NCBI GenBank assembly: GCA_043800065.1
Contig: JAZDNG010000029.1
Span: 2,837 to 66,836 of the forward strand
Direction: 5' to 3'
Source of the DNA: Candidatus Omnitrophota bacterium
GTDB lineage: Bacteria; Omnitrophota; Gorgyraeia; JAHIPI01
DNA: 64,000 bases
Of this stretch, positions 14,353-62,539 are shown piece by piece. The notes beneath the pieces are model-generated. The model saw only the letters and a program-made list of their open reading frames with translations. It was not told the origin of the DNA and did not search any database. A program made the position numbers and the translations under genes. Positions within the stretch are counted from its first letter, which is position 1. Every line of letters starts with the position of its first letter.

Positions 14353-15029
14353 ACATGAAAAAGATCTTAGTGGTCGCAGCGCATCCTGATGACGAAGTAT
14401 TAGGCTGCGGCGGAACCGTCGCTCGAATGATAGCGGAGGGCAATGAAGCATATACGCTCATACTGGGGGAAGGCATAACTTCGCGATATCCCAAAAGCTC
14501 AAATAGGATGAAGAAAGATCTGAGGGAGCTTAGAAAGGCAATAGGGAAGGCCAACCGTGTCATAGGCGCAAAGAGTGTCTTTCCGTTAAATTTTCCTGAC
14601 AACAGGTTCGATACCGTTTCGACGCTTGATATAGTCAGGAGCATAGAAGCTATAAAGAATAGAGTCAAGCCGCAAGTTATATTTACGCACCACTGGCGCG
14701 ATTTGAACATAGACCATAGGGTGGCTTTTAACGCCGTTCTCACGGCATGCCGGCCCGTAGAAGAGGAGACCGTAAGCGCGATTTATTCTTTTGAGATACC
14801 GTCTTCAACGGAATGGAATTACCCTTACACCTTTGCGCCGAATCTATTTGTGGATATAACGGCGATGTTGAGTAGGAAAATTTCGGCAATGAAATGCTAT
14901 GCGACCGAACTGAGAAAATTTCCTCATCCACGGTCTCCCAGGGCTGTTGAGGCGCAGGCTGCAAAATGGGGAAGCGTTGTTTCCAGAAATTATGCCGAAG
15001 CGTTTGAAATCGTGAGAATGATAAAATGA
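14349..15029 (+). CDS. PIG-L/LmbE-family N-deacetylase
   Basis: ILVVAAHPDDEVLGCGGTVA… is the canonical LmbE AHPDDE metal-binding motif. Confidence 0.75.
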   Translation: MNMKKILVVAAHPDDEVLGCGGTVARMIAEGNEAYTLILGEGITSRYPKSSNRMKKDLRELRKAIGKANRVIGAKSVFPLNFPDNRFDTVSTLDIVRSIEAIKNRVKPQVIFTHHWRDLNIDHRVAFNAVLTACRPVEEETVSAIYSFEIPSSTEWNYPYTFAPNLFVDITAMLSRKISAMKCYATELRKFPHPRSPRAVEAQAAKWGSVVSRNYAEAFEIVRMIK

Positions 15030-16006
15030 AATATATAAGCCTATTACGCGCCACGGAAGATGATGGCATACATATATTAAACTGGAGAAATGATCCTACG
15101 GTGCAGAGCAATTTCTTTGACTCCAGGCGTATTTCATTTGAGGAACATATGAGATGGTATAAAGAAAAGCTGCGCGACCCGGATGCAGCTTTATATATAA
15201 GCCGATACGGCAATGACAGGATAGGCGTAATACGCTTCGAAAAGAAAAAGGCCGCCGTGTCTGTAAGCGTCAACGTTGCTCCTCATCTTATCGGAAAGGG
15301 CTTTGGAAGCGAGATCATACGCCTCGGCACTGAGCGCTATTACGCCGAGACAAAACAGAACGTACCTGTCGTAGCCGAGATAAAAATTGAAAACATTTCC
15401 TCTCAAAAAGCGTTCCGGAAGGCCGGATACAACAAGAAGACAAAGGATAAGGCGAAGATTGTTTTTATTAGGAAGCCCGAAGACACGTGTATACGTGATA
15501 AAGAAATCTGTTTCCTGCCTTTGCAACAAAAGCATATAAATAAAATATACCTCGGATGGCTGAATGACCCTGACGTGACCAAGTACCTTGAGACAAAGAA
15601 GTCGACCGAAGAGGAACTCAAAACCTATTATAAGAATATTTTGGGCAACATCAATGTGATGATTTTTGCCATTGAGGTTCGTAAGAGGCATATCGGCAAT
15701 GCAAAACTTGAAGTAAACTGGAAGCACGGGTATGCGAACTTCGGCATCATGATAGGTGATAAAAAGGAGTGGGGCAAGGGGTACGGAGCAAGAGTGGCGC
15801 GCCTTATTGCAGATTATGCCATAAACAGGTTGAACCTTTATTCAGTAATTCTGGGGGTATACGGTAATCATACTGCCGCAATAAGGTCGTACATAAAAGC
15901 CGGCTTTCATATAAAAGGCCGGATGCGTGGTATGTTAGATTTTGAAGGCAAGCGTGTTGATAAGGTATTTATGGGTATTTCGCGGAAAGAGTTGGAGGTG
16001 CGGTAA
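15026..16006 (+). CDS. Tandem GNAT N-acetyltransferase (two PseH-like domains)
   Basis: Two about 160-aa halves each carry GNAT-like motifs. The N-terminal …ILNWRNDPTVQSNFF…EEHMRWY… resembles PseH. Confidence 0.55.
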   Translation: MKYISLLRATEDDGIHILNWRNDPTVQSNFFDSRRISFEEHMRWYKEKLRDPDAALYISRYGNDRIGVIRFEKKKAAVSVSVNVAPHLIGKGFGSEIIRLGTERYYAETKQNVPVVAEIKIENISSQKAFRKAGYNKKTKDKAKIVFIRKPEDTCIRDKEICFLPLQQKHINKIYLGWLNDPDVTKYLETKKSTEEELKTYYKNILGNINVMIFAIEVRKRHIGNAKLEVNWKHGYANFGIMIGDKKEWGKGYGARVARLIADYAINRLNLYSVILGVYGNHTAAIRSYIKAGFHIKGRMRGMLDFEGKRVDKVFMGISRKELEVR

Positions 16007-17614
16007 ATGGCAGGTACGCAATTTCCGGTTGACATATACGCCGTAAAAGAATACGGCGTCAAAAAATGGCAGGGCGAGTTCTTCTGGCCGGTATCGGATG
16101 ACGAGTTTGTAAAACTTGGTACGGAGATCGACCGTTATCTGAAAGACGAGATCAATAGGCAATCTGGCGAAATGAGTGATCTGCTGTTAATCTATAGTTC
16201 GTTGCGTGCGGAATACCTGTTGTTTTTCCATGCGCTGAAAGTCGCCCAAAGAGTAAAGGCGGCGGGCAAGGAGTTAATGTATTCGGATAAGACTTTATGG
16301 TATAAAGAAATTGCATCCGGCGAGCGCATGGAAATTCCGAAGCTCAGAAGAGGCAAGGCAAAATATACGTTTATTAACAGGATAAAAGTAGAGGCAGCCA
16401 GGATTATTTGGCGTATTCTATATAACGATAGGCTAAGCAAGGTTTTCAACCCGAAGGAGAATAAAGAAATTGTTTACATATTCAACTCTTTGACTCCGCT
16501 TATGAAGCTTTATATGAAAAATTCACCCTATACGTTTAACATGACTTCAGAGCGAGACTGGGCAGAGGATAGTTCTTTTGTCAGCATACCCGACAATCTG
16601 CTCAATTCTATAGAGGATACCTCACGAGCCATCTCGGCCAACTTGGCGTCAACTGCGGATAGGAATGGGATAGAACTTTCGGATAATCATAAGGGCTATC
16701 TCACTAAGCTTACCGAAAGCATGCTCACAGACGCGGCAAGGATAATGTATTCAATAAAACCCAAAATAGAGGACAGACGTAATGCGCGGTTTTTTTTGTC
16801 AACGTTCGTCAGTTATTTTCCGAGGGCGCTTGCCGTTCTTGCCCGGAAGAATGGCGGCCATGTAACTACCTTCAGTCACGGCGGTAGCATAGGCCTTTAC
16901 GATGCATCCACAATGGCTTTTCAGGAATTCGCGGTTTCAGACGAATATGTCACCTATAACAAGAAGAGCACAGAGCTTTTTGAACGTATTAAGAATAATA
17001 ACCCCGCTCTCCGGAATAACGATACGCTCATAACATCGTGCGATGACAATGCATATGAAAATATGTGGCTGATAAACCGCAATAAGCCACTGCCGAAAGA
17101 AATAAAGAAAGTCATGATTATAGGATATCCCCATAACCAAGGGAGGAAGTACCATGCGCCCGGTTCAGTGTCCCTCATCCAGCTCGATCTTGAATTACGC
17201 CTGGCCGATTTTTTAAGAGGGCATGGATATGATGTATTCTATAAGGCGCATCCTGACAGAATTGCCGAAGTAAAGGGAGTCTTTGACGACAGCGCCAAAG
17301 TACTGGAAGGGTATTTTCAGAATTACATCGATAGCGTCGATGCATTTATATTCGGCAGCATAAGGACAACGGCATTTTTAGTAGCGCTGTGCACGAATAA
17401 GCCGGTAATCGGATTTATGATGGAGAACGAAAGATTTAAACCCTTTCCTGAGGCGCTAGAAAGTCTTAAAAAAAGATGTAACATGGTAAAGGCAAAATTT
17501 GACGAGCATAACCGTATCGTTTTCAACGAAAAAAAACTTTCTGATGCTTTAGCCCAAAAACCGACTCAACCAAATACCGAATTTATTGAGAAGTATATAT
17601 TTCCGGAAAAATAA
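16007..17614 (+). CDS. Hypothetical protein, candidate GT-B ulosonic/nonulosonic-acid transferase (HP motif)
   Basis: 535 aa. The C-terminal region (…VMIIGYPHN…VFYKAHPDRI…) contains the K-x-HP motif shared by bacterial sialyltransferases and KpsC/KpsS Kdo transferases. No other recognisable family. Confidence 0.3.
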   Translation: MAGTQFPVDIYAVKEYGVKKWQGEFFWPVSDDEFVKLGTEIDRYLKDEINRQSGEMSDLLLIYSSLRAEYLLFFHALKVAQRVKAAGKELMYSDKTLWYKEIASGERMEIPKLRRGKAKYTFINRIKVEAARIIWRILYNDRLSKVFNPKENKEIVYIFNSLTPLMKLYMKNSPYTFNMTSERDWAEDSSFVSIPDNLLNSIEDTSRAISANLASTADRNGIELSDNHKGYLTKLTESMLTDAARIMYSIKPKIEDRRNARFFLSTFVSYFPRALAVLARKNGGHVTTFSHGGSIGLYDASTMAFQEFAVSDEYVTYNKKSTELFERIKNNNPALRNNDTLITSCDDNAYENMWLINRNKPLPKEIKKVMIIGYPHNQGRKYHAPGSVSLIQLDLELRLADFLRGHGYDVFYKAHPDRIAEVKGVFDDSAKVLEGYFQNYIDSVDAFIFGSIRTTAFLVALCTNKPVIGFMMENERFKPFPEALESLKKRCNMVKAKFDEHNRIVFNEKKLSDALAQKPTQPNTEFIEKYIFPEK

Positions 17615-24146: not shown

Positions 24147-25331
24147 ATGGCAAAGAACATAATTTTTTTAACAAAGAAAAGAAGTCTTGCTGGAATAGAC
24201 CAAGCATTGCCCATTTTTATGGAAATGAGAAAAATATCACCTCAAAGCAATATAATTATTGTTTTCGGCGATAAAAAAATTTATGACCTTACGAAAAGAA
24301 ATTATATCCTTTTGGAAGATATAGAATATGTAAACGGCAAAATGTATGTTCTCAGAGGAAAAAATAAACTCATTACATTATTTAAAATCTTGAAATTCGT
24401 TTTTCTGCTTGCTTTTAAAGAGAATATTATTTTAAGAGAAACAGACAATCTTCCTTGGCACAATATAACCATGAAGCTAATAAAAATGATTTCAAGGGTT
24501 GTCCAAATAAGGGTTTTTTTGGCAGTGCAAAATCCCATTTATTTAAAAAATCTCAATGAATCATCTCTGCTTTATTGGAAAAGAGAAGGAAAAGCAGTTT
24601 TTAAAAATCCTGTTAAGGGAGAATTTGATTATTTCCTATCGGCATTGAGTCCCGGTCAGGTTGAGGATGTTTTTAATGTTAAAGCCCCCAGAAATAAAAT
24701 AGTTGAAGTCGGCTATACTCACGGATTGTCTATATGGCGAAAATATATGGATGACGCCATTAAGCGAAATAAAGTAATAAACAATGGGAAATACTTTCTA
24801 TATGTACTTGCATACCTAGGCAAGCGACGGACCAACTTTGATGAGCCGGAGATAATCGACTTATTAGAAGAATCGTTAAATATTTTAAAAAAATATAATG
24901 GCAAAATCAAGACAATTTTCAAACCCCATCCTGTTACGGACATGGGGAGAGTCAAAAAACTGCTTGATAAAATTAGTTACTCAAACTATGTAATTGATTA
25001 TACCCACCCCTTTATTTTATCATCCAAGGCGCAATTTGTTTTTGGAAATGTCTACTCTTGCACAATGTTAGACGCATATTATCAGGGTAAACCCATTGTA
25101 GAGTATTGCCAATATGACTCAGAACTTTTTATCAGAATGAATAGGCAGTCATGGGGCGGTAGCAGATTCTGCGATTTTTTTATTTATCGCGACAAGAAAA
25201 AACTGGATGAGGTTTTGGATAGATTGATTAATAATGAAATAAAAGTAGAGCGAGAGCCAAAATTTATGCAGGATAATTTTCCAGATACGCCGCCGCAATT
25301 TTATGAATTTTTACATAAGCTGCTTTCTTAA
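24147..25331 (+). CDS. Hypothetical protein, second candidate HP-motif glycosyltransferase. About 30% GC.
   Basis: 394 aa. …IFKPHPVTD… HP motif as in the 16007 ORF and ulosonate transferases. Markedly AT-rich relative to its neighbours. Confidence 0.3.
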   Translation: MAKNIIFLTKKRSLAGIDQALPIFMEMRKISPQSNIIIVFGDKKIYDLTKRNYILLEDIEYVNGKMYVLRGKNKLITLFKILKFVFLLAFKENIILRETDNLPWHNITMKLIKMISRVVQIRVFLAVQNPIYLKNLNESSLLYWKREGKAVFKNPVKGEFDYFLSALSPGQVEDVFNVKAPRNKIVEVGYTHGLSIWRKYMDDAIKRNKVINNGKYFLYVLAYLGKRRTNFDEPEIIDLLEESLNILKKYNGKIKTIFKPHPVTDMGRVKKLLDKISYSNYVIDYTHPFILSSKAQFVFGNVYSCTMLDAYYQGKPIVEYCQYDSELFIRMNRQSWGGSRFCDFFIYRDKKKLDEVLDRLINNEIKVEREPKFMQDNFPDTPPQFYEFLHKLLS

Positions 25332-44493: not shown

Positions 44494-44680
44494 AAAATTC
44501 GGCTGGTGGTCGGCTGTTGTGTTAGTGGAGTCATGGGGGAGAAAGCAATTGTGTTTTTATCTCTGGCAGAAAAAACCAGACGGCGGCTGGCGCAGGAAGC
44601 AGAAATTCGCCGTTCACAGCCAAGAGCACTGGGGGCTGATGACGAATGCCGTTGATAAGATGATAGGCGAGCTGAATTAA
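44411..44680 (+). CDS. Hypothetical protein (89 aa)
   Basis: Strong GAGGGAGGG RBS directly upstream of the ATG. No recognisable domain. Confidence 0.3.
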   Translation: MTDPNVIKDELIPIASPLKVLQSVTVNKKFGWWSAVVLVESWGRKQLCFYLWQKKPDGGWRRKQKFAVHSQEHWGLMTNAVDKMIGELN

Positions 44681-44700
44681 GATACGGTAAGATATACAAA

Positions 44701-45024
44701 ATGAAAAAATCCGGATGCATCGCAATCTTTACCGCCTGCCCTACAGAAAAAGAGGCCGAGCGCATAGCGGGCGAATTGATAAAGAAAAAACTTATCGCGT
44801 GCGCAAATATGATACGGGGCGCGAGGTCTATATTCCGCTGGAAGGGGCATGTTGAAAGAACGGGCGAAACGCTCCTCATAATGAAAAGCTTAAAAAAGAA
44901 TTTCAGCCGGATTGATAGAGCGATAAGAGATCTGCATAGTTACGAAGTGCCGGAAATAGTATCTTTTTCTATTGACGAAGTGAGTAACGATTATTTAAAA
45001 TGGATAAGAGAGTCGGTGAGGTAA
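44701..45024 (+). CDS. cutA: Divalent-cation tolerance protein CutA
   Basis: …CPTEKEAERIAGELIKKKLIACANMIRGARSIFRWKGHVE…LLIMKS…YEVPEIV… is the CutA1 fold signature. Confidence 0.75.
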   Translation: MKKSGCIAIFTACPTEKEAERIAGELIKKKLIACANMIRGARSIFRWKGHVERTGETLLIMKSLKKNFSRIDRAIRDLHSYEVPEIVSFSIDEVSNDYLKWIRESVR

Positions 45025-45025
45025 A

Positions 45026-45111
45026 GGTAGTCCCTCGACGCGCTCGCTTAAACATAGCTGCGAGCTCGCTTGCTCGGGACGAATTTTTGCAAGCAAAAAT
45101 TCGGAGGCAAT
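45026..45111 (+). promoter_or_regulatory. Conserved about 90-nt leader element, copy 1 (also at 50615..50701)
   Basis: 23-nt identical block GGTAGTCCCTCGACGCGCTCGCT, and a conserved 3' block GCTCGCTyGCTCGGGACrAATTTTTGCAmGCAAAAATTyGGAGrCA that contains a palindrome AATTTTTGC-N2-GCAAAAATT directly ahead of the RBS. Confidence 0.4.
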
Positions 45112-45537
45112 ATGAGAAAATTATTAACAATTATTATTTTGGCAGTGGTAGTGGTTATGGCGCCTATTTTTGCAAACGCAATGCGCTCAAGCACTCAGAC
45201 TCCGGACGTGAAGTATATTTCGCCGCGAAACGACCACCAAGTGGACCTCACAGGAAAAGAGGGCCTGACTTTTGAGTGGCATTCAATCCCGAAACCCGGC
45301 GGCGGTCGCGAGGCGTACCGTTTTGAATTATTTAAGGGATCGGAAGATAATTACAACAGAATATATAGCGTAGAATTGAAGCGGGACGTCTGCACTATAG
45401 ATATTCCGGCCGACATGTTTGAAGACGGGGCGATGTATAGCTGGCTCGTTAAACAGCGCGACGCAAGGACATCAGCCTGGTCAAGGGCCGGAGACAGATG
45501 GCGCTTCACCGTAATTAAAAAGGGCGGGGTGAAATGA
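45112..45537 (+). CDS. Secreted hypothetical protein, paralog A
   Basis: Signal peptide MRKLLTIIILAVVVVMAPIFANA. Shares …DH.VDLTG.E.LTF.W…YRFELF……WS..G.RWRFTVIKK with the downstream paralog. Start moved to 45112 (GGAGG RBS). Confidence 0.5.
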   Translation: MRKLLTIIILAVVVVMAPIFANAMRSSTQTPDVKYISPRNDHQVDLTGKEGLTFEWHSIPKPGGGREAYRFELFKGSEDNYNRIYSVELKRDVCTIDIPADMFEDGAMYSWLVKQRDARTSAWSRAGDRWRFTVIKKGGVK

Positions 45538-45950
45538 AGAAGACACTTCTTTTTTTAGCAATATTCCTTTTTGCCGGCGCTTCGCTTTTATACGCTTTTG
45601 GCCGCGGTGCTGCCGATTTTACGCCGTGCGTGGAATATTCAGAGCCAGCCGATGACCACGAAGTGGACCTGACAGGAAGGGAGATCCTGACATTTAAATG
45701 GCGCCCTGTTCCGATCCCGAGCGGTATGCGCGACTCCTACCGCTTTGAACTTTTTGAAGAAAGCCGAGGATATACGGACAAAAGGATCTTCAATAAGGAT
45801 CTCGCGCCCGACGTGTATTCCATAGATGTTCCCGCGGAGCTCTTTAAGAACGGGGAGGATTACACCTGGTCTGTCAGGCAGCGCGACCAGATGACTTACA
45901 ACTGGTCAAGATCCGGCAACAGGTGGCGTTTTACGGTTATTAAGAAATAA
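45534..45950 (+). CDS. Secreted hypothetical protein, paralog B (tandem duplicate)
   Basis: Signal peptide MKKTLLFLAIFLFAGASLLYA. About 40% identity to paralog A over about 110 aa. ATGA overlap with paralog A. Confidence 0.5.
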   Translation: MKKTLLFLAIFLFAGASLLYAFGRGAADFTPCVEYSEPADDHEVDLTGREILTFKWRPVPIPSGMRDSYRFELFEESRGYTDKRIFNKDLAPDVYSIDVPAELFKNGEDYTWSVRQRDQMTYNWSRSGNRWRFTVIKK

Positions 45951-45958
45951 TTTCAATT

Positions 45959-46032
45959 GGGGCCGTAGTAAAGCGGGATTACGCAGCGTTCGCAACGCTG
46001 AGTCACGGGTTCGATTCCCGTCGGCTCCACCA
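45959..46032 (+). tRNA. tRNA-Ala (anticodon CGC), CCA-encoded
   Basis: Manual cloverleaf: acceptor GGGGCCG/CGGCTCC with a G3:U70 pair (the Ala identity element). D arm GTAA-AGCGGGA-TTAC. Anticodon arm CAGCG-TTCGCAA-CGCTG. T arm ACGGG-TTCGATT-CCCGT. Discriminator A plus CCA. Confidence 0.85.
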
Positions 46033-46202
46033 CTTAACGATTTGGTCTTCGCCCCCAAAAAGTAAGGAATGTGCTTTTTGGGGCTCCGACCTCGCCTTTG
46101 GCGGGGGCTCGCGCCCAAATCGTTTTAAGGGGACTCCGCCTTAGGCGGATTCCCCTTAATGTACCTCTTTCAAAAATACAAGTTTCCACCATTTTGCAAA
46201 AT

Positions 46203-47678
46203 ATGAGAAAAATAGTTTTACTTCTAATACTTACAGCCTTTATATCTATCGCCCGGGCGGCGGAGGTAAAAGATGCTGATCTTGCCGACTCGTGGTATCC
46301 GGCATCCCCAGGTGTCCTCTCATCTACCTTAGACAGTTACTTAAAAGAGGCGAAGGCAAATCCGGTCAAAGGCGATATCGTCGCTATTATTGCTCCGCAC
46401 GCAGGGCTTGTATATTCGGGCCCGGTTGCCGCATATGCATATAAGGCGGTTCAGGGCCGCGATTATAAAACAGTGGTACTTCTGGGATTTTGCCACAGGG
46501 CGCCCTTCGGAGGCATATCCATTTACAAAGACGGCTATTTCAATACGCCTTTAGGGGCCATAGAGGTGGATTCCGATTTTGCGTCAAAACTTATGGCGCG
46601 TGTCAAAGAGGCGTCATTTTATCCTCAAGCTTTTACAGGCGAAAATTCCGTTGAGATGCAGCTATTGTTTATAAAGAAGGTTCTGCCCGGAGCGAAAATC
46701 ATTCCCATAGCTTTCGGAGGCAGCTCCTTCGCAAATTGCGAAACACTCGCAAGCGCTTTGGCGGATATGGCGAAAGGCCGGAATGATGTTTTGATTGTAG
46801 CTTCAACTGACATGAGCCATTACCATACTGAGCAAGATGCGCGAAAAATTGACCTGGCGAGCGTGGAACTTCTGAGGAATTTTGCCGCAAAGGAGATTTA
46901 TGATAAGTCGGTTAAGCGCGAACAGATATTCTGCGGCTATATGCCTGTTGCTACAGTACTTCTTGCCGCAGGGGATATAGGCGCCGATAATATAGATATA
47001 CTCCAATACGCAAATTCGGGCAATATCACCGGCGACATGAAGAGCGTCGTCGGTTATGTCAGCGCCGTTATTTATAAAGATTTCGCCGCACCCGGCGATA
47101 AACCCGGGGCTCGAGCCAAGGGAGGAACAATGCTTAACGATTTACAGCGTAAAACGTTACTTAAGATCGCAAGGGATACCATAGAATCTTATCTCAAAAC
47201 AGGGAATGTGCTTCAGGTAAATGAAGACGACCCTGTCCTTAGTAAGGAGATGGGCGGCTTTGTTACTCTGCACAAGAAAGGCCAGCTAAGAGGTTGCATA
47301 GGGAATATAATAGGGAAAGGGCCGCTTTACCTTACAGTGCGCGATATGGCTATAGAGTCAGCTACCGGCGACCCGCGTTTTCCGAAAGTAAAGTTGGATG
47401 AGATGAAAGACATAGATATAGAGATTTCAGTCCTTTCGGAACTTGAAAAGGTAAAGGACGCAAACGAAATCCAAATGGGTGTTCACGGTGTCCTTGTACG
47501 CAGAGGGTTTAATAGCGGCGTATTCCTGCCGCAAGTCGCCACAGAAACCGGCTGGACTAAAGACGAGTTCATGGCGAACCTTTGCGCGCATAAAGCAGGC
47601 CTCCTGCCGGACGCCTGGAAGCACGGCGACGTCGACATTTATATTTTTACCGCGGAGGTCTTTGGGGAGAAGGAGTAA
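46203..47678 (+). CDS. MEMO1-like (AmmeMemoRadiSam protein B) fused to an AMMECR1 domain, with a predicted signal peptide
   Basis: N-terminal half …IIAPHAGLVYSGPVAAYAYKA…DMSHYH… (Memo dioxygenase-like). C-terminal half …LRGCIGNI… (AMMECR1 motif). Start moved to MRKIVLLLILTAFISIARA. Confidence 0.65.
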   Translation: MRKIVLLLILTAFISIARAAEVKDADLADSWYPASPGVLSSTLDSYLKEAKANPVKGDIVAIIAPHAGLVYSGPVAAYAYKAVQGRDYKTVVLLGFCHRAPFGGISIYKDGYFNTPLGAIEVDSDFASKLMARVKEASFYPQAFTGENSVEMQLLFIKKVLPGAKIIPIAFGGSSFANCETLASALADMAKGRNDVLIVASTDMSHYHTEQDARKIDLASVELLRNFAAKEIYDKSVKREQIFCGYMPVATVLLAAGDIGADNIDILQYANSGNITGDMKSVVGYVSAVIYKDFAAPGDKPGARAKGGTMLNDLQRKTLLKIARDTIESYLKTGNVLQVNEDDPVLSKEMGGFVTLHKKGQLRGCIGNIIGKGPLYLTVRDMAIESATGDPRFPKVKLDEMKDIDIEISVLSELEKVKDANEIQMGVHGVLVRRGFNSGVFLPQVATETGWTKDEFMANLCAHKAGLLPDAWKHGDVDIYIFTAEVFGEKE

Positions 47679-47836
47679 GGGGACGTTTCCCTTTGTCCTA
47701 ACATATTGTGCGGCAGGAAATTACAACACCTAGATTTCCAATTTCCCTATAGGCAAAAAAGGAAAAACCGGAAAATGGCACTCTGTAATTGCTTATCAGA
47801 TAAGAAGTTACAACAAAGAGAAACGTCCCCTTTTTT

Positions 47837-48568
47837 ATGAGTAGATTTTACGTGCCGCCGGAGGCGGTAAAAAATGGTAAGATATACGCCGGGAAAGACG
47901 AGAGCCGGCATATCTCAAGTGTCATGCGGCTTAAGGAAGGCGATGAGGTAACAGTCTTTGACGGTTCCGGCAAGGAATATACCGGCAGAATAGAGTCAGT
48001 AAGAAATAAAAATGTGATCATAAATATAGAAAAGACCGTTGCCTCTCCCATAGAGCCTTCCGTCCGCGTAACTCTCGCGCAAGTCTTGATAAAAAAAGAT
48101 AAAATGGATTATATCGTCGAGAAGGCCACAGAGCTTGGGGCTCTCGAGATCATCCCCCTTGAAACGGGACGAACGGTTGTCCGTCCCGACAAAGCCGCAG
48201 GCGGCCACAAATTTGAGAGATGGCAAAGAATAGCGATTGAAGCCGCGAAGCAATGCGGCAGAAGAGATCTGCCAAAGATTAAAAAAATAAATACATTCGA
48301 TGAGATGCTGGATATATTTCCGCAGTACGATATGGTTCTTATGCCATGCCTGTCCGAAGAGACTATTCCGCTAAACAAGGCGATAACCTCCGCAAAAGAT
48401 CCTAAAAATATACTTCTTCTGATAGGTCCTGAAGGCGATTTTACTCCCGACGAGATAGAGCGCGCGCGCCAAAAAGGGGCTATTCTAGTTTCGCTAGGCA
48501 ATCTTGTGCTAAAAAGTGATACCGCCGCAGTCGCAGCCCTCGCGATGATTAATTACGCATTCTTATGA
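47837..48568 (+). CDS. rsmE: 16S rRNA (uracil1498-N3)-methyltransferase RsmE
   Basis: MSRFYVP…HISSVMRLKEGDEVTVFDG…  PUA-like N-terminus. C-terminal SPOUT domain (…LLIGPEGDFTPDEIE…). Confidence 0.8.
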   Translation: MSRFYVPPEAVKNGKIYAGKDESRHISSVMRLKEGDEVTVFDGSGKEYTGRIESVRNKNVIINIEKTVASPIEPSVRVTLAQVLIKKDKMDYIVEKATELGALEIIPLETGRTVVRPDKAAGGHKFERWQRIAIEAAKQCGRRDLPKIKKINTFDEMLDIFPQYDMVLMPCLSEETIPLNKAITSAKDPKNILLLIGPEGDFTPDEIERARQKGAILVSLGNLVLKSDTAAVAALAMINYAFL

Positions 48569-49863
48569 AGACGTGCGCTTTTTATACATTAGGCTGCAAG
48601 GTCAATCAATACGAGACTCAAGCGATCCGCGAGAATTTTATAAAAGCCGGCTACAAAGAAAGAGATTTTAGCCGGTCATGCCATGTCTACGTAATAAACA
48701 CCTGCACAGTCACAGAAAAGACCGATAAAGAATCCCGCCGCCTCATGAGGAAGGCGCATCGGCAGAATCCCAGAGCAAAAATTGTCGTTACCGGCTGCTA
48801 TGCGGAGCTTGACCGCGCCGAAATAAACGCTATAGACGGAGTTTCCTTCATAATAAAGAACAAGGACAAAGATAAAATAGCGGATATTGTAGATTCGAAA
48901 AAAACTGCGCGACGCCTGCGGCCGACAGCAAAATATCCGGAGCCGGGCATCTCCGATTTTAAAGACAGATCAAAGGCATTTCTCAAGATTCAGGACGGCT
49001 GCAATAATCTTTGTTCATATTGCAAGGTACCGATTGTGAGGGGATATTCAAGGAGCCGGAATGAGGAGGCGGTAATAGCCGAAGCAAAGCGCCTTTTAAA
49101 AAAGGGATTTAAGGAAATAGTGCTCACCGGTATCTGCCTTGGCTCGTGGGGCGAGGAATATGTTCCGGAAAAATCTATAGAGGACCTGCTCAGGAAGCTT
49201 ACCGCCATAAAAGGTGATTTCAGAATACGCCTAAGTTCGATAGAACCTAAATATGCGAACAATGGGTTGCTTGGCGCAATAAAAAGATCGCCGAAGATAT
49301 GCAAGCATCTTCATATGCCGCTTCAAAGCGGTGATGATAAGATCCTTAAGATGATGAACCGCCCCTACACATTTCGCGAATACGCGAAGATAGCTCAAAA
49401 TGCCCGGCGCAAAGTACCAAGCATAGCCATAACTACCGATATATTGATAGGTTTTCCGTCCGAAGGCAGCAAGAATTTCCGGAACACCTGTAAGCTTATG
49501 GCGAGGATCAGGCCCTCGCGCATCCATATCTTTCCTTATAGCAGAAGAGAAGGAACCGCTGCCTCAAAATTGCAGGGAGAACTCCCCAAAAATGTTGTGG
49601 CTGGCAGGATAAAAGTTATGAAAGCCCTGGCCGAACAGTATTCTTACGAATTTCGAAAAAAATTTAAGGACAAGATAGTAAAGGTGCTGGTTGAGGCCGA
49701 AAGAGACAAGAAGACCGGATTTTTGAAGGGTTATGATGACCACTATATAAATGTCTTGATAAGCGGCACACTTGGCAAAAAGAACGAAAGATATATATCC
49801 AAAGTCATTCCGGTTAGGATACAAAAGGTAGATAAAGAGCTGACTCTTGCATCCCTCATATAA
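48565..49863 (+). CDS. mtaB: MiaB-like tRNA methylthiotransferase (MtaB-type)
   Basis: …CAFYTLGCKVNQYETQ… MTTase N-terminus. Radical SAM CNNLCSYC. TRAM C-terminus. ATGA overlap with rsmE. Confidence 0.65.
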   Translation: MKTCAFYTLGCKVNQYETQAIRENFIKAGYKERDFSRSCHVYVINTCTVTEKTDKESRRLMRKAHRQNPRAKIVVTGCYAELDRAEINAIDGVSFIIKNKDKDKIADIVDSKKTARRLRPTAKYPEPGISDFKDRSKAFLKIQDGCNNLCSYCKVPIVRGYSRSRNEEAVIAEAKRLLKKGFKEIVLTGICLGSWGEEYVPEKSIEDLLRKLTAIKGDFRIRLSSIEPKYANNGLLGAIKRSPKICKHLHMPLQSGDDKILKMMNRPYTFREYAKIAQNARRKVPSIAITTDILIGFPSEGSKNFRNTCKLMARIRPSRIHIFPYSRREGTAASKLQGELPKNVVAGRIKVMKALAEQYSYEFRKKFKDKIVKVLVEAERDKKTGFLKGYDDHYINVLISGTLGKKNERYISKVIPVRIQKVDKELTLASLI

Positions 49864-49932
49864 TTTACCCCCATATCTTGACAGTGATATAATCCTGTGG
49901 TATACTTACTTACCTTAAAGTTTTTCACTTAT

Positions 49933-49962
49933 CCGTAGGGGGCGTTTAAACGTCCCCTACGG
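49933..49962. terminator. Palindromic hairpin CCGTAGGGGGCGTTTAAACGTCCCCTACGG (member of the GGACGTTTAAACGTCC family)
   Basis: 13-bp stem with one G/T wobble position and a TTTAAA loop. Located 70 nt after the mtaB stop. No clear U-tract. Confidence 0.35.
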
Positions 49963-49987
49963 CTGCATAAAAAGGGGGGTATAATTT

Positions 49988-50605
49988 TTGGAGTGGGTAA
50001 GTAAAGTAAATTGGGTAGACGTTTTATTCCTAATTATAATATTAAGAAGTATTTACGTTGGCTCGCAAAGAGGTTTTTTTGCTGAGCTTTTTAATATATT
50101 AGGGATGGGAATAGCTATAGTTTTAAGTATACATTTTTATTCCCGGATAGCCGCCTTCATAACGAAATACCTTTATATCCCTCCCAACATATCAAATATC
50201 ATATCGTTTTTGGCCGTGGCATTTCTGGCCCATCTGTTATTTCAGTTTGCAACCGGACTTATCAAAAAGGTTGTAAAGGTAGAAATATTTCCCAATTTTA
50301 ACAAATGGATCAATGTCTTCGGCGGTCCTATTATAGGATTTTGCAAGGGAATGACGGTGTCTCTTTTTATATTTCTAGTGCTGCTTCTTATTCCCGTTAG
50401 TTATGTCGTAAATTCAGCCAAGGATGGTTCGTTGTCGGGGCAGTTCTTTGCGCGTTCAGCCAGGACCCTGTACGAAAAGACAATCGGCATAATTCCTTCC
50501 ACTCAACCGGTGGATATTACTCCGCTTCTAGCAGGCGCAGAACCTCTGAAATTTAAGATGTTCCAGCCGAAGACAAGCGATAAACTTGACGAAGTTATAA
50601 ATTAA
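49988..50605 (+). CDS. cvpA: CvpA-family membrane protein (colicin V production protein-like), TTG start
   Basis: …VDVLFLIIILRSIYVGSQRGFFAELFNILGMGIAIVLS… is typical of the CvpA N-terminus. Four TM helices. Confidence 0.65.
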   Translation: MEWVSKVNWVDVLFLIIILRSIYVGSQRGFFAELFNILGMGIAIVLSIHFYSRIAAFITKYLYIPPNISNIISFLAVAFLAHLLFQFATGLIKKVVKVEIFPNFNKWINVFGGPIIGFCKGMTVSLFIFLVLLLIPVSYVVNSAKDGSLSGQFFARSARTLYEKTIGIIPSTQPVDITPLLAGAEPLKFKMFQPKTSDKLDEVIN

Positions 50606-50614
50606 GTGTAAAAC

Positions 50615-50701
50615 GGTAGTCCCTCGACGCGCTCGCTCGTGCGAAACGCGGGCTCGCTCGCTCGGGACAAATTTTTGCACGCAAAAATTTGGAGACATTT
50701 T
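50615..50701 (+). promoter_or_regulatory. Conserved about 90-nt leader element, copy 2
   Basis: Same conserved blocks as 45026..45111, including the AATTTTTGCACGCAAAAATT palindrome. Sits directly upstream of the Nif3-like gene. Confidence 0.4.
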
Positions 50702-51664
50702 ATGAAATTTAAAGATATTTACGAATTTGTTGTTAAAAGAGGCATCGCGAAAGACCCGCGCCAAAAAGCGGATATTAAAAAGACGCTCGCGGACGCGAGG
50801 AAGGAATATAATAAATTATCAGCCGCAAGAAAATCGGCATTTGACAAAGAGAGGGTGAGGCATCCCTACGATGACACGAGGATGCTCTATGGCGATCCTG
50901 CCGCCGAGATAGAGACGATAATGGTCGGTATAGATATGGAAGTGGGCGAGCTATTGGTAGCAGACAGGCTGAGAGAAAAAGGTATCGGCATAGACCTTGT
51001 TATGGCCCATCATCCGGAAGGAAAGGCCCTTGCCGGGTTTTATCATGTCATGAGCATGCAGGCCGATATATTGAAAAAACTCGGGATTACATATTCCATA
51101 GGCAAGGAATTGCTGGATGAGCGTATGGCGGAGGTAGCCAGAAGCATATCCGCGGTAAATCACACAAGGAGCGTAGACGTGGCGCAGCTCTTGGACATTA
51201 ATTACATGTGCGTTCATACGCCTGCCGATAATCATGTTACGGATTATTTGCAGAGGTTATTTGATAGTAGAAAACCCAAGACTTTGAAAGACGTTATAAG
51301 CATACTGGATACCGTGCCCGAATATCGCGATGCGTCAAAAAATAACGCGGGCGCTTTTATAATGATAGGCAAGGAAAAAGACAAGGCCGGCAAGATCGTC
51401 GTCGATATGACAGGCGGTACCGAGGGCTCGAAGAGAATCTTTCCCAGGCTTTCCCAGGCGGGCGTCGGTACGCTGATAGGCATGCATTTCAGCGAGGGGC
51501 ATTTCAAAGCGGCGAAGAGCGAGCATATAAATATAGTAGTCGCCGGCCACATATCGAGCGACACTCTCGGGTTGAATCTTCTCTTGGATTCGCTCTCGGA
51601 AAAAGACGATTTTAAAATTATACCTTGTTCGGGTTTTGTACGGGTTGACAGGCGAAAGAAATAA
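50702..51664 (+). CDS. Nif3-family dinuclear-metal-centre protein
   Basis: …DLVMAHHPEG…, …VHTPADNH…, …VAGHISSDTLG… correspond to the conserved His clusters of Nif3/YbgI/YqfO. Start moved to MKFKDIYEF. Confidence 0.55.
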   Translation: MKFKDIYEFVVKRGIAKDPRQKADIKKTLADARKEYNKLSAARKSAFDKERVRHPYDDTRMLYGDPAAEIETIMVGIDMEVGELLVADRLREKGIGIDLVMAHHPEGKALAGFYHVMSMQADILKKLGITYSIGKELLDERMAEVARSISAVNHTRSVDVAQLLDINYMCVHTPADNHVTDYLQRLFDSRKPKTLKDVISILDTVPEYRDASKNNAGAFIMIGKEKDKAGKIVVDMTGGTEGSKRIFPRLSQAGVGTLIGMHFSEGHFKAAKSEHINIVVAGHISSDTLGLNLLLDSLSEKDDFKIIPCSGFVRVDRRKK

Positions 51665-51739
51665 CCCTTCGACGCGTTCCGCCTTCGGCGGGACTTGCTC
51701 AGGGTGTATGCTGAGCGAAGTCGAAGCATAAACTAAAAG

Positions 51740-53536
51740 ATGGCTCATATACCGGATAACATATTAGACCAGATACTCGACAGGTGCAATATAGCCGAAG
51801 TTATATCCGGCTATATTCCTTTAAAGCGGGCGGGAAGGAATTTTAGGGCACTCTGTCCGTTCCATCACGAAAAGACCCCATCCTTCATGGTCAATCCCGA
51901 CAAGGGCATATATCACTGCTTCGGGTGCGGTGCCGGCGGAAACGCATTCAGTTTCGTTATGAAATATGAACGCCTTGAATTCCCGGAAGCGGCCAGGATG
52001 CTGGCGAAAAAGGCCGGCGTACCTATTCCGGAGTATACAAAAGACGACTCGGGAAAAGACACCTCTCTGATAAACGGTATCTATAAAGCGCACGAGTTAG
52101 CGGCGGAATATTTCCGAGGCGTACTTACATCCCTCGAGGCAAAGGGAGTGAAGGAATATCTTGTAAAGAGGGGGATCAAGAGCGAGATGGTCAATAAGTT
52201 CCGTATAGGGTTTGCGCCTGATTCGTGGGATGGCCTTCTGGGATATTTGACCAAGCGCGACATGGCCAAGGAGATAATAGAAAAATCCGGACTGATTATC
52301 TCGAAACAGGACGGCGGCGGTTATTATGACCGCTTTAGAAAACGGCTGATGTTTCCAATATTCGACCAGAAGGACAAGGTTATTGCTTTTGGAGGCAGAG
52401 TGCTTGACGATACGCTGCCAAAATACATGAATTCGCCGGAGACGCTGATATATAATAAAAGCAAGACGCTCTTCGGGCTTAATTTTACCAAACGGCATAT
52501 AGGCGAAAAAGACGCAGCCGTCATCGTAGAAGGGTACACGGACCTCATAATCCCTTACCAAAATGGTGTCAACAATCTCATAGCATCCTGCGGCACATCG
52601 CTTACAGTAGACCATATACGCCTTATACGCCGCCATAGCCGCAACATAATAATGGTTTATGATTCGGACAAGGCCGGCGAAACAGCGACTTTAAGGAACC
52701 TTGATACGCTCCTTTCAGAGGATATGGACGTCAAGATCGCGGAGATGCCCAAGGGGTGCGACCCGGATAGTTTTACGAGAAAAAATGGCGCTGCCGCGTT
52801 TGAGAAAATACTCGCAAATCCTACGGGCCTTTTTGAATATAAACTGAATCGCCTGCTTTTGCGACACAAGCCGGATACAATAGAAGTAAAGGTGAAGGTT
52901 GCAGGTGAGATGCTAGTGACGATTTCAAAGGTGAACAATGCGGTCCTCCGTTCTGCCTATATCAAAAGATTGGCAGAGCTGCTTGGTCTTGACGAAAATA
53001 GCCTAAGATCCGAACTTGCGAAACCCAAGAAGGATTACGCCGCATCCTATTCCAGGGAGGCGTATATATCGGCCGCAAAGGCCGATATCAGTACCTTAAG
53101 CCCGGCCGATAAGACGCTCATAGGCCTTATGGTGGAGGATAATACCATTATACCGGCGGTAAAAGAGAAGCTTTGCGTTGCCGAATTCGGATGCGGAGCC
53201 GCTCAAAAAATCGCGGAAAATATATTTAAGATACACGATGAGAAAAAATCCGTAAGCTATGCCTGCCTGATAAGCCACCTGGAAATAGACGGCGCGGGCG
53301 AGCTTTTGTCGGATATCGCATCCATGCAGGAAAGCCTTAGCGACAAGAAAAAGAACCTGGATGACTGTATAAAGTGGCTTAAGAAAAACAACGCAAAGAG
53401 GGATCTCGAGGATATGCAGCGAAAGATAAAGGCAGCTCAAGATACGGGCGAACACGGAAAGGTCGCGGACCTGGTTGCGAGGTATAGCAAGCTTATGAAG
53501 GAATCAATGCGTTATCATGATAAAGGGGTAAGATGA
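51740..53536 (+). CDS. dnaG: DNA primase
   Basis: Zn-binding …[30 protein letters not shown]…. TOPRIM …EGYTDLI…YDSDKAG…. Confidence 0.85.
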
Positions 53537-60760: not shown

Positions 60761-60786
60761 GTAGCGGACGTTTAAACGTCCGCTAC
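60761..60786. terminator. Perfect 26-nt palindrome GTAGCGGACGTTTAAACGTCCGCTAC (same family as 49933..49962)
   Basis: Perfect palindrome. Located 20 nt after the response-regulator stop. Confidence 0.35.
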
Positions 60787-61095
60787 AGCTACCACTAAGA
60801 ATTTCCTTTACACCCTGCCGCAAATTAAGTATAATAATGAGACAATTTTGCGATGTGATATACTTCTGGGTCCGCCTTCGCCATATTGCTTTCGTGTGCG
60901 GCTACGGCGGGACGCCGCCAGATAGGAAATAGCTGGGCTCGTAGCTTCCCGCCTACACACTAGCGTGTTCGGCGGGACCCCGCAGAGGAGCGAAGCGACG
61001 CATGCGGGGCAATTGGTTAGTTCATCAGTATCTTCGAACTAATCTAAAGCATGAAAAATGGCATCTGCTGCTACGGCAAACAAATTATTATAGCT

Positions 61096-61172
61096 GGGCT
61101 CGTAGCTCAATTGGTTAGAGCATTTGACTCATAATCAAAGGGTTCCTGGTTCAAGTCCAGGCGGGCCCACCA
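61096..61172 (+). tRNA. tRNA-Met (anticodon CAT; elongator-type, could alternatively be a lysidine tRNA-Ile2), CCA-encoded
   Basis: Manual cloverleaf: acceptor GGGCTCG/CGGGCCC. D arm GCTC-AATTGGTTA-GAGC. Anticodon arm TTTGA-CTCATAA-TCAAA. T arm CCTGG-TTCAAGT-CCAGG. Discriminator A plus CCA. There is no C1:A72 mismatch and no run of three G-C pairs in the anticodon stem, so it is not an initiator. Confidence 0.85.
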
Positions 61173-62233: not shown

Positions 62234-62236
62234 ATT

Positions 62237-62272
62237 TTGGTTGATGATTTGGTTGATGATTTGGTTGATGAT
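62237..62272. repeat. Three tandem copies of the 12-mer TTGGTTGATGAT
   Basis: Three exact copies with no spacing, ending 8 nt upstream of tRNA-Val. Confidence 0.6.
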
Positions 62273-62280
62273 TCCAATAT

Positions 62281-62357
62281 GGGCGGTTGGCGCAGTTGGT
62301 CAGCGCGTGTGCCTCACATGCACAAGGTCGGTGGTTCGAGCCCACTACCGCCCACCA
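62281..62357 (+). tRNA. tRNA-Val (anticodon CAC), CCA-encoded
   Basis: Acceptor GGGCGGT/ACCGCCC. D arm GCGC-AGTTGGTCA-GCGC. Anticodon arm TGTGC-CTCACAT-GCACA. T arm GGTGG-TTCGAGC-CCACT. Discriminator A plus CCA. Confidence 0.85.
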
Positions 62358-62539
62358 ACTTTTCCGAAGGAAAAGTTGGTCCCGTGACCGCAGGGAATCC
62401 CGTAGGGGCGACCGAAGGGAGTCCCGTTAGGGAGGGAATGCCGAGGCCATCCGGCCGAGGCGAGCAGCGTTAAGTCCGCCGAAGGCGGATAGCTGCAGAG
62501 GGACCACCGAGGCGTTCAGCATCCAAACCATAAGGAAAC

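Follow-up and report, generated by a model that had tools for sequence, protein, structure and literature searches.

A family of small palindromic, probably mobile repeats at gene boundaries in Omnitrophota

A 64-kb stretch of Candidatus Omnitrophota DNA (the window) was analysed for a short duplicated element which lies directly upstream of two genes. On the + strand the order is CutA, copy 1 of the element, two small paralogs, tRNA-Ala(CGC), Memo-AMMECR1, RsmE, a MiaB-like enzyme, CvpA, copy 2, a NIF3-like gene, a third and more distant element, DnaG and RpoD; the genes between copies 1 and 2 are syntenic housekeeping genes. The TAA stop of the CutA1 gene (44701-45024, +; Pfam CutA1, 1.6e-33) lies 1 base 5' of copy 1 (45026-45102, +), which is followed by the Shine-Dalgarno sequence (SD) GGAGG (45103-45107) and the ATG (45112) of the first small secreted paralog (SD to start codon 45103-45114, +). 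The stop of the CvpA (Colicin_V) gene (49988-50605, +; Pfam) is 9 nt 5' of copy 2 (50615-50690, +), and 3' of this copy are the SD GGAG (50691-50694, +) and ATG (50702) of the NIF3/DUF34-like gene (50702-51664, +; Pfam), which has copy 2 on its 5' side and the third element on its 3' side, and whose product is 100% identical to a protein of a Candidatus Omnitrophota metagenome-assembled genome (MAG). The two copies had been described in an earlier note as a conserved leader in front of unrelated genes, and the downstream genes are indeed unrelated, being two small paralogs without a Pfam match in one case and a DUF34/NIF3 protein in the other.

The duplication was found to be far beyond chance. 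Between 45026-45111 and 50615-50701, 71 of 85 nt are identical, including one 23-nt identical block, and the differences are clustered in one inner loop of 11-12 nt. The sequence GGTAGTCCCTCGACGCGCTCGCT occurs exactly twice in the 64 kb (at 45026 and 50615), with 0 occurrences expected in 100 shuffles even at 3 mismatches, and a second conserved block, GCTCGCTYGCTCGGGAC with the A/T palindrome AATTTTTGC-NN-GCAAAAATT, has no sites in the 64 kb beyond the two copies. Each copy is predicted to fold into an outer 5-bp stem (GUCCC/GGGAC) around an inner hairpin, of which the stem is conserved and the loop is not, followed by a second structure, a perfect 10-bp A/T hairpin. In copy 1 these are, after the head GGTAG (45026-45030, +), the outer stem GTCCC/GGGAC (45030-45034 and 45076-45080), the inner stem GCTCGC/GCGAGC with its 12-nt variable loop (45042-45047 and 45060-45065) and the A/T hairpin GAATTTTTGC/GCAAAAATTC (45081-45090 and 45093-45102), all on the + strand. 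Copy 2 likewise carries a GGTAG head, an outer stem (50619-50623 and 50664-50668, +) around an inner hairpin whose loop differs from that of copy 1, and the A/T hairpin AAATTTTTGC/GCAAAAATTT (50669-50678 and 50681-50690, +). The palindrome had been placed next to the ribosome-binding site with arms of 9 bp; the position holds at both copies, where the 3' end of the hairpin is 0-1 nt from the SD, while the arms measure 10 bp when the closing pair (G-C in copy 1, A-T in copy 2) is counted. Both the SD and the AUG are single-stranded in the minimum free energy (MFE) and centroid folds of both copies, and for their composition the two copies have ordinary fold energies (z = -1.3 and -1.4).

The third element (67 nt; 51665-51731, +; fold z = -3.3) is located between the NIF3 stop and the dnaG SD. 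Its kinship with the two copies, proposed previously as a weaker one, was borne out, as CCYTCGACGCG, TTGCTCRGG and the stem logic are held in common. It is predicted to pair at CCCT...AGGG, at CTTCGAC...GTCGAAG and at TTGCTCAG...CTGAGCGA, with a UUCG hairpin inside, and ATAA is present on both sides. The outer stem reads ACCCT/AGGGT as against GTCCC/GGGAC in the copies, which amounts to three compensated positions between the subfamilies, and the terminal inverted repeats CTTCGAC...GTCGAAG stand at its ends, whereas copies 1 and 2 have just the internal 5-bp GTCCC/GGGAC. A covariance model was built from the copies and used to scan the window and related contigs; within the window it matched copy 1 (92 bits), copy 2 (93.9 bits), the third element (21.5 bits), a weak relative in inverse orientation (62347-62429, -; 24.3 bits, E ~2e-4) and nothing else. 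This last relative adjoins the 3' CCA end of tRNA-Val and has an A/T-rich hairpin (CCAACTTTTCC-TTCG-GGAAAAGTTGG) beside a TCCC...GGGA stem. A long G+C-rich multi-hairpin trailer follows the same tRNA-Val (62358-62530; GGTCCCGTGACCGCAGGGAATCCCGTAGGGG...GTTAAGTCCGCCGAAGGCGGATAG) and is similar to the trailer after tRNA-Ala at L104:10500-10605 (related contigs are designated L throughout); just upstream of it, at 62234-62275, TTTGGTTGATGA is repeated three times in tandem.

Orthologous loci were compared at graded distance, measured as nucleotide identity to the NIF3 gene of the window. The closest were L104 (GCA_018896195.1) and L105 (GCA_018894435.1; NIF3 98% for L104, which is fully syntenic and ~95% identical overall, 89-98% per aligned block), followed by L052-54, L055 and L103 (79-81%) and by L056, L098, L099 and L102 (70-74%). 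Copy 1 is missing in L104, where the spacer between CutA and the next gene is 15 nt long (GGTAAAATTCGGAGGGTTATATG) and reads GGTAAAATTCGGAGG. Copy 2 is kept in L104 (86/87 nt), is missing in L052-55 and L103, with cvpA-NIF3 spacers of 23-28 nt where the contig has both genes (L052-54, L103), and is not found upstream of NIF3 in the more distant L056, L098, L099 and L102 either. The third element is missing in L104, which has a scar-free empty site, GAAATAA|ACTAAAAG (GAAAGAAATAA|ACTAAAAGATG), and also in L055 and L103; in L052-54 it is present at the identical nucleotide (63/67 nt), although identity in the neighbouring gene is down to 79% (55% at third codon positions) and each lineage has its own immediate flanks. 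The nearest relatives of both groups of carriers (L104 for the window, L055 for L052-54) are without the element, and its presence at the same nucleotide would require either independent site-specific insertion or repeated precise excision. ATAA is found on both sides of the third element as opposed to a single ATAA in L104, L055 and L103, and AAAAA on both sides of copy 2 in L104 as opposed to once in L052, copy 1 being off by one A; these junction repeats are also compatible with insertion beside a fixed target without duplication.

The element was judged in the earlier note to be probably non-coding, and this is supported: no conserved open reading frame (ORF) runs across it, the loops of the copies differ in length, and element-free orthologs start at the same ATG. 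The spanning ORFs (45000-45275 on the + strand, a GTG extension from 50639, and 50528-50764 on the - strand) were rejected on the same grounds.

Most of the other length differences between the window and L104 over the aligned 35.5-56.1 kb are small palindromic insertions at gene junctions, namely 36573-36902, 47679-47836, 49935-49964 and L104:19430-19510. The first, 330 nt long, separates a MiaB/TRAM-like gene from uvrA and is missing in L104, where the genes are 1 nt apart; it is highly structured (MFE -141 kcal/mol), and its ends are inverted repeats (AATATTGGTACTCCCCTCGCTC...GAGCGAGGAAAGTATCAATATT) with a minimal CCCTCG-CTCAGG core like that of the repeat family studied here. The block at 47679-47836 is a 158-nt MITE-like (miniature inverted-repeat transposable element) insertion with the termini GGGGACGTTTC...GAAACGTCCCC and then a T-run, missing in L104, where the two genes overlap by ATGA (stop/start overlap); its right end is similar to the right flank (GAACCCGTCCCCTTTTT) of transposase-like genes in L107/L109 which are described below. 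Two GTAG-headed perfect palindromes, 49935-49964 (GTAGGGGGCGTTTAAACGTCCCCTAC; missing in L104) and 60761-60790 (GTAGCGGACGTTTAAACGTCCGCTAC), differ from each other in a compensatory manner and look like classical repetitive extragenic palindromic (REP) sequences. The L104-specific module of ~80 nt at L104:19430-19510 lies before secD, in place of a 19-nt spacer including the SD in the window, and comprises a TCCC...CTCGGGA stem, a hairpin (CCTTACAACTTACG...CGTAAGTTGTGG) and GAGGAG; a similar hairpin precedes a split tRNA-Met in L099. Near copy 1, the window at 44680-44701 is without a ~900-nt histone-deacetylase-family gene which is found between small ORFs and cutA in L104 (8748-9648), L098 and L099.

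Further copies were found by motif and model searches. Pattern scans of genome and metagenome collections gave mostly chance matches in high-G+C genomes, plus 17 in low-G+C Omnitrophota-like contigs; in the genome collection, which consists of species representatives and lacks the source genome, 48 of 51 matches were due to chance in high-G+C genomes and just L007, L022 and L045 were relevant, while a scan of viral contigs for the tRNA-leader form gave 0 matches. The window subtype (GGTAG plus the GAATTTTTGCACGCAAAAATTC hairpin) occurs at L077:87-163, directly before the SD of a GAPDH gene, and is identical to copy 1 at 76 of 83 positions, with the differences confined to the inner loop. A covariance-model match at L107:7684-7805, between type II secretion genes F and G and before a pseudopilin, carries a nested 58-nt hairpin in the A/T loop. 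Shorter forms, likewise scored by the model, end exactly at tRNA +1, at L093:77-123 (tRNA-Ile, in an rRNA spacer) and at L099:4536-4588 (tRNA-Ala(CGC), the counterpart of the window tRNA at 45959). Longer relatives follow the scheme GTCCC-TCGACGCG-variable-CTTGCTC-GGGAC-ATGGT-GAGCAAG-variable hairpin-CGCGTCGA-ACCATGG; the ACCATGG end is seen in seven of them, and in four of the seven (L022, L047, L093, L096) the CCA end of a tRNA predicted by ARAGORN adjoins the element. Judged by the tRNA and, where one is visible, by the next gene, these longer forms are inverted with respect to the window orientation. The GGTAG head is present in copies 1 and 2, L077 and L104, and is not found in L107, L085, L022, L045, L047, L093 and others. 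An HDV-like or other ribozyme was rejected for the tRNA-trailing forms, as their helix order, compared by hand with the nested double pseudoknot, has a different topology.

Some of the tRNA genes concerned have further features of their own. A conserved structured trailer of ~100 nt (46033-46130; CTTAACGATTTGGTCTTCG...GCGCCCAAAT) directly 3' of tRNA-Ala(CGC) in the window recurs at L093:201-305, 3' of tRNA-Ile in an Omnitrophota rRNA spacer, while the L104 trailer differs there, and for Memo-AMMECR1 the listed GTG start (46071) probably lies too far upstream. In L093 (702-7025) the 23S rRNA gene is split into at least 5 pieces, with one group I intron above the Rfam gathering cut-off and three intron matches below it.

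The elements sit in the short gap separating a stop codon from the SD that follows, and since no other space tolerates insertion in so compact a genome, compactness is enough to explain where they lie. On the left, the junctions are rich in A and in many cases take in the stop codon (TAAA|GGTAG, TAAAA(A/C)|GGTAG, AATAA|CCCTT). On the right, the unoccupied sites of copy 1 (in L104) and of copy 2 (in L052) both already contain AAAATTCGGAGG; AAATTYGGAG is rare, with 2 occurrences in the 64 kb, both at the copies, and TCGGAGG, as seen in distant relatives that have always been without the element, is the ancestral sequence context of the NIF3 SD. As the right flank pre-exists at the empty sites, the inserted DNA therefore supplies the left arm only (GAATTTTTGC and the loop), complementary to the flank, and the closing pair of the A/T hairpin differs between the copies in step with the flank base. 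The same principle is seen in the tRNA-trailing forms, where an ATGGTG inside the element can pair with the CACCA(T) junction. Copy 1, read on its bottom strand, has AAAATTC immediately before the GTCCC...GGGAC hairpin (on the 5' side), complementary to the flank GAATTTT.

Taken together, copies 1 and 2 and, more distantly, the third element are probably members of a family of small, non-coding, non-autonomous palindromic mobile repeats of REP/MITE type in Omnitrophota. Members are gained or lost between near-identical genomes, stand before unrelated genes and tRNAs, and have conserved stems with freely varying loops; presence in one strain and absence at the same site in near-identical strains indicates a mobile repeat rather than a switch tuned to a gene. 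In the proposed sequence of events, the element would insert site-specifically into an A-rich sequence (ATAA or AAAA) directly 5' of AAAATTY-GGAG, its GAATTTTT arm would pair with the pre-existing AAAAATTC flank to create the A/T hairpin, and the whole would be co-transcribed with the operon as two stable stem-loops after the upstream stop, with the downstream SD left free. Expression might be affected, for instance if the upstream cistron is shielded from 3' exonucleases or termination of the upstream ORF is mildly disturbed, but this would then be a by-product and not a regulated switch. REP sequences stabilise malE-malF in E. coli, and Liang, Rudd and Deutscher (2015) reportedly observed reduced expression of the upstream gene where an E. 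coli REP lies no more than ~15 nt from a stop codon; by analogy, the element may protect the upstream cistron or impede termination. No paper linking Omnitrophota with palindromic repeats was found in the literature, and the family is new as far as that search showed, while its kind, a small palindromic mobile repeat, is ordinary.

Several observations weigh against a mobile repeat. There are only two close and two distant copies in the 64 kb. No transposase was detected in the window (Pfam, 50 ORFs), neither a Y1 transposase nor an integrase. The copy 1 comparison is not a clean insertion, as the adjacent secreted gene is also more diverged (93% identical at the nucleotide level) and is single in L104 but duplicated in the window, and the target-site duplications of copies 1 and 2 are ambiguous, lying within A-runs. 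The only REP-associated transposase-like gene seen beside a family member (L085/L106) has a different inverted repeat at its flanks (see below). Finally, all six of the two-hairpin modules found just before an SD or tRNA 5' end share one orientation and end 0-1 nt away, and the stems of these modules are identical between different genomes while the loops differ, which could reflect a selected function; going by this uniform orientation and stem identity, some copies may have been co-opted.

The family resembles the REP, bacterial interspersed mosaic element (BIME) and REPIN-RAYT (REP-associated tyrosine transposase) systems of Proteobacteria in being made up of short extragenic imperfect palindromes with bulged stems, co-transcribed between genes, with conserved arms, variable spacers and longer forms that are mosaics of inverted modules; none of the stems of copies 1 and 2, outer or inner, lies within a gene, in line with REPs as extragenic imperfect palindromes of ~20-50 nt. 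REPs number tens to hundreds of copies per genome; the 64 kb contain two close and two distant matches. It differs in consisting of two hairpins over ~75 nt, one of which is half target flank. Operon MITEs, such as the neisserial Correia elements, enterobacterial ERIC/IRU and pneumococcal RUP/BOX, are small, non-coding, directed to AT targets, polymorphic between strains and co-transcribed, with possible side effects on mRNA processing and stability, and the present elements would be like them in these respects. Such MITEs have clear terminal inverted repeats matching a known insertion sequence (IS) family and a TA or short duplication, while here terminal repeats of 7-8 bp are found in the dnaG-proximal element only.

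GTAG directly 5' of a stem is a hallmark of REPs (PMC8266576, PMC3116915); the window subfamily has it and most other family members do not. In the IS200/IS605 and REP/RAYT systems a short sequence 5' of the hairpin foot acts as a guide by pairing with the cleavage or target site (PMC3201880, PMC5934647, PMC8266576), and precise excision is known for systems of IS200/IS605 type (PMC5027513). In their hairpin-based ends, scar-free empty sites, recurrence at one nucleotide and a short stretch immediately before the hairpin foot (on its 5' side) that can pair with the neighbouring target, the elements resemble IS200/IS605 ends and their transposase-less derivatives (palindrome-associated transposable elements). 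The complementarity here is, however, a 7-10-bp Watson-Crick hairpin as opposed to a 4-nt guide with non-canonical pairs, the guide/target geometry differs from that of IS608, no TnpA is linked to the element, no left-end/right-end pair is evident, and the A-run and ATAA junction repeats could equally be true target duplications.

Of the possible mobilisers, a single-stranded-DNA Y1 (HUH) transposase of the RAYT or IS200-IS605 kind acting in trans is the most likely, as a tentative assignment. A tblastn search with YafM and IS200 sequences identified a Y1 transposase gene beside a family member in L085. The RAYT-like protein of L085/L106 scored 61.6 bits against Pfam Y1_Tnp, and that of L085 scored 81.5 bits against NCBIfam REP_Tyr_transpos (cut-off 80), so that a protein reaching the cut-off for a REP-associated tyrosine transposase is encoded on a contig with a family member, as in REP/RAYT systems. 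In contrast to those systems, no RAYT gene was found flanked by the repeats studied here: the RAYT-like genes of L085, L106 and L107-110, among them L085:297-1013(-), L106:672-1370, L107:217-921 and L107:4001-4705, are flanked by inverted GGGACRGGTTCATTTAAT repeats. In L106 the RAYT-like unit lies inside a family element, of which there is a 31-nt duplication, and is not bracketed by it; in L107 the family element is ~3 kb from the RAYT homolog, and no family element was seen in the short contigs L109 and L110. A link to RAYT was accordingly not established, the genes having ends of their own and lying beside, inside or apart from the element without being bracketed by it. In L107 two identical copies of the RAYT-like gene bracket a 970-aa ORF.

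It is further conceivable, if doubtful, that the site is chosen by base pairing, with the 3' arm (GAATTTTT...) complementary to a rare target of 7-10 nt (AAAAATTC followed by GGAG or a tRNA 5' end) and the ATGGTG of the longer relatives complementary to the CACCA(T) of the tRNA genes which they abut. If so, mobilisation could be due to a Y1/HUH enzyme not yet characterised, or template switching could give rise to the hairpins. Spread without any transposase, by microhomology recombination or gene conversion between spacers with TAAA... and ...AAAATTCGGAGG, or with the arms made by template switching on the flank, appears improbable. The 12-nt right flank seen at other copies is held by both unoccupied sites, TAA(A) is common to the left junctions and the closing pair of the hairpin covaries with the flank base, all of which such spread would account for, but it leaves unexplained the tRNA-adjacent copies and also the third element, where no shared flank of this kind exists, ATAA is duplicated, and a differently flanked lineage carries the element at the same site. 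Integron attC sites were also considered and rejected, as there are no R''/R' cores (RYYYAAC ... GTTRRRY), no cassette array and no integrase in the window.

The remaining explanations assign the element a function for the host. A host-selected RNA module, in which the stem-loops are kept as an intercistronic processing or stabilising element or as a tRNA or mRNA leader, is rather unlikely as the main account, and is compatible with a mobile origin. It would draw on the orientation and stem identity already mentioned, on one copy lying inside an rRNA operon spacer and on the A/T hairpin, whose four sequence variants all remain fully self-complementary, with one double change from G-C to A-T among them. 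Covariation in a 7-sequence alignment is not above that of shuffles, as just one pair shows a double change and 459 of 500 shuffles do as well; moreover, the fold energies are ordinary, relatives also occur opposite to the direction of transcription, near-identical genomes do without the element at the same site, and its position is explained by the tolerance of the stop-to-SD gap alone.

The earlier note had offered two regulatory readings, a shared promoter-operator module and a cis-regulatory RNA masking translation initiation, and neither is upheld in a form dedicated to the downstream genes. As an operator, the 10-bp-arm A/T palindrome would bind a putative dimeric DNA-binding protein co-regulating these genes, in keeping with a perfect palindrome next to the start of three or four unrelated genes and with a promoter-like TTGACG-18-TAAAAT (44972-45001) within the 3'-terminal part of cutA, ~25 nt before copy 1. 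This is the nearest such site and is found at copy 1 only, and promoter-like sites in the region are no more numerous than in shuffles. No -35/-10 hexamers of sigma-70 type and no intrinsic terminator were found inside either copy, nor is there a promoter consensus in or beside copy 2, which is itself within an operon-like string of genes. The site is missing from the orthologous spacers of genomes 79-98% identical at NIF3, half of the palindrome is ordinary flank, and an operator role fits poorly with the same hairpin before tRNAs and, once, inside an rRNA spacer; we regard it as very unlikely. Least probable of all, and already largely refuted, is a thermometer or riboswitch-like leader that masks translation initiation. 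Like riboswitches, RNA thermometers and attenuators, the element is structured, non-coding and directly 5' of the SD, but unlike them it leaves the SD and start codon unpaired in both folds of both copies, is not kept with the orthologous genes, lacks covariation, and has as its sole candidate ligand pocket a hypervariable inner loop which is unrelated between the copies. No Rfam match was obtained at the elements, either at the gathering score over the whole window or at E <= 10 over 44900-51900 and five related loci. A gene-specific leader, a masking RNA or a promoter is thus unsupported, as there is no Rfam, promoter, terminator, covariation or ORF support, and the earlier reading is partly supported: the element is non-coding and repeated, and is not a regulatory leader.

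Elsewhere in the window, 60934-61030 (also L007:~505-590 and L099:~15000-15060) contains the first 12 nt of tRNA-Met (GGGCTCGTAGCT), G+C hairpins and then CAATTGGTTAG, and looks like the 5' part of a tRNA-Met interrupted in the D-loop, ~100 nt upstream of the intact tRNA-Met at 61096; it is kept in three genomes. A long same-strand nonulosonic-acid/glycan biosynthesis cluster (3175-25331) contains Polysacc_synt_2, DegT, NeuB, two cytidylyltransferases, three B12-binding radical SAM enzymes, PIG-L and GNAT, as well as ORFs without a Pfam match at 16007-17614 and 24147-25331, the latter in a dip to 35.5% G+C.

The mobile-repeat interpretation has consequences beyond this locus. Structured, duplicated "leaders" in the compact genomes of uncultured phyla can be mistaken for riboswitches or operators, and comparison of near-identical MAGs separates mobile palindromes from regulatory RNA. 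Such elements make up most of the length differences in the region between two Omnitrophota genomes of ~95% identity, which makes them useful as strain markers, and they probably cause assembly breaks. Operon expression may be modulated by insertions that immediately follow stop codons and precede SDs. Were the complementarity between element and target mechanistic, the family would represent a compact, naturally programmable form of guide-directed insertion, a mini-transposon family homing to the exact boundaries of functional RNA (the SD, tRNA +1 and the tRNA CCA) at the edges of tRNA genes and ribosome-binding sites.

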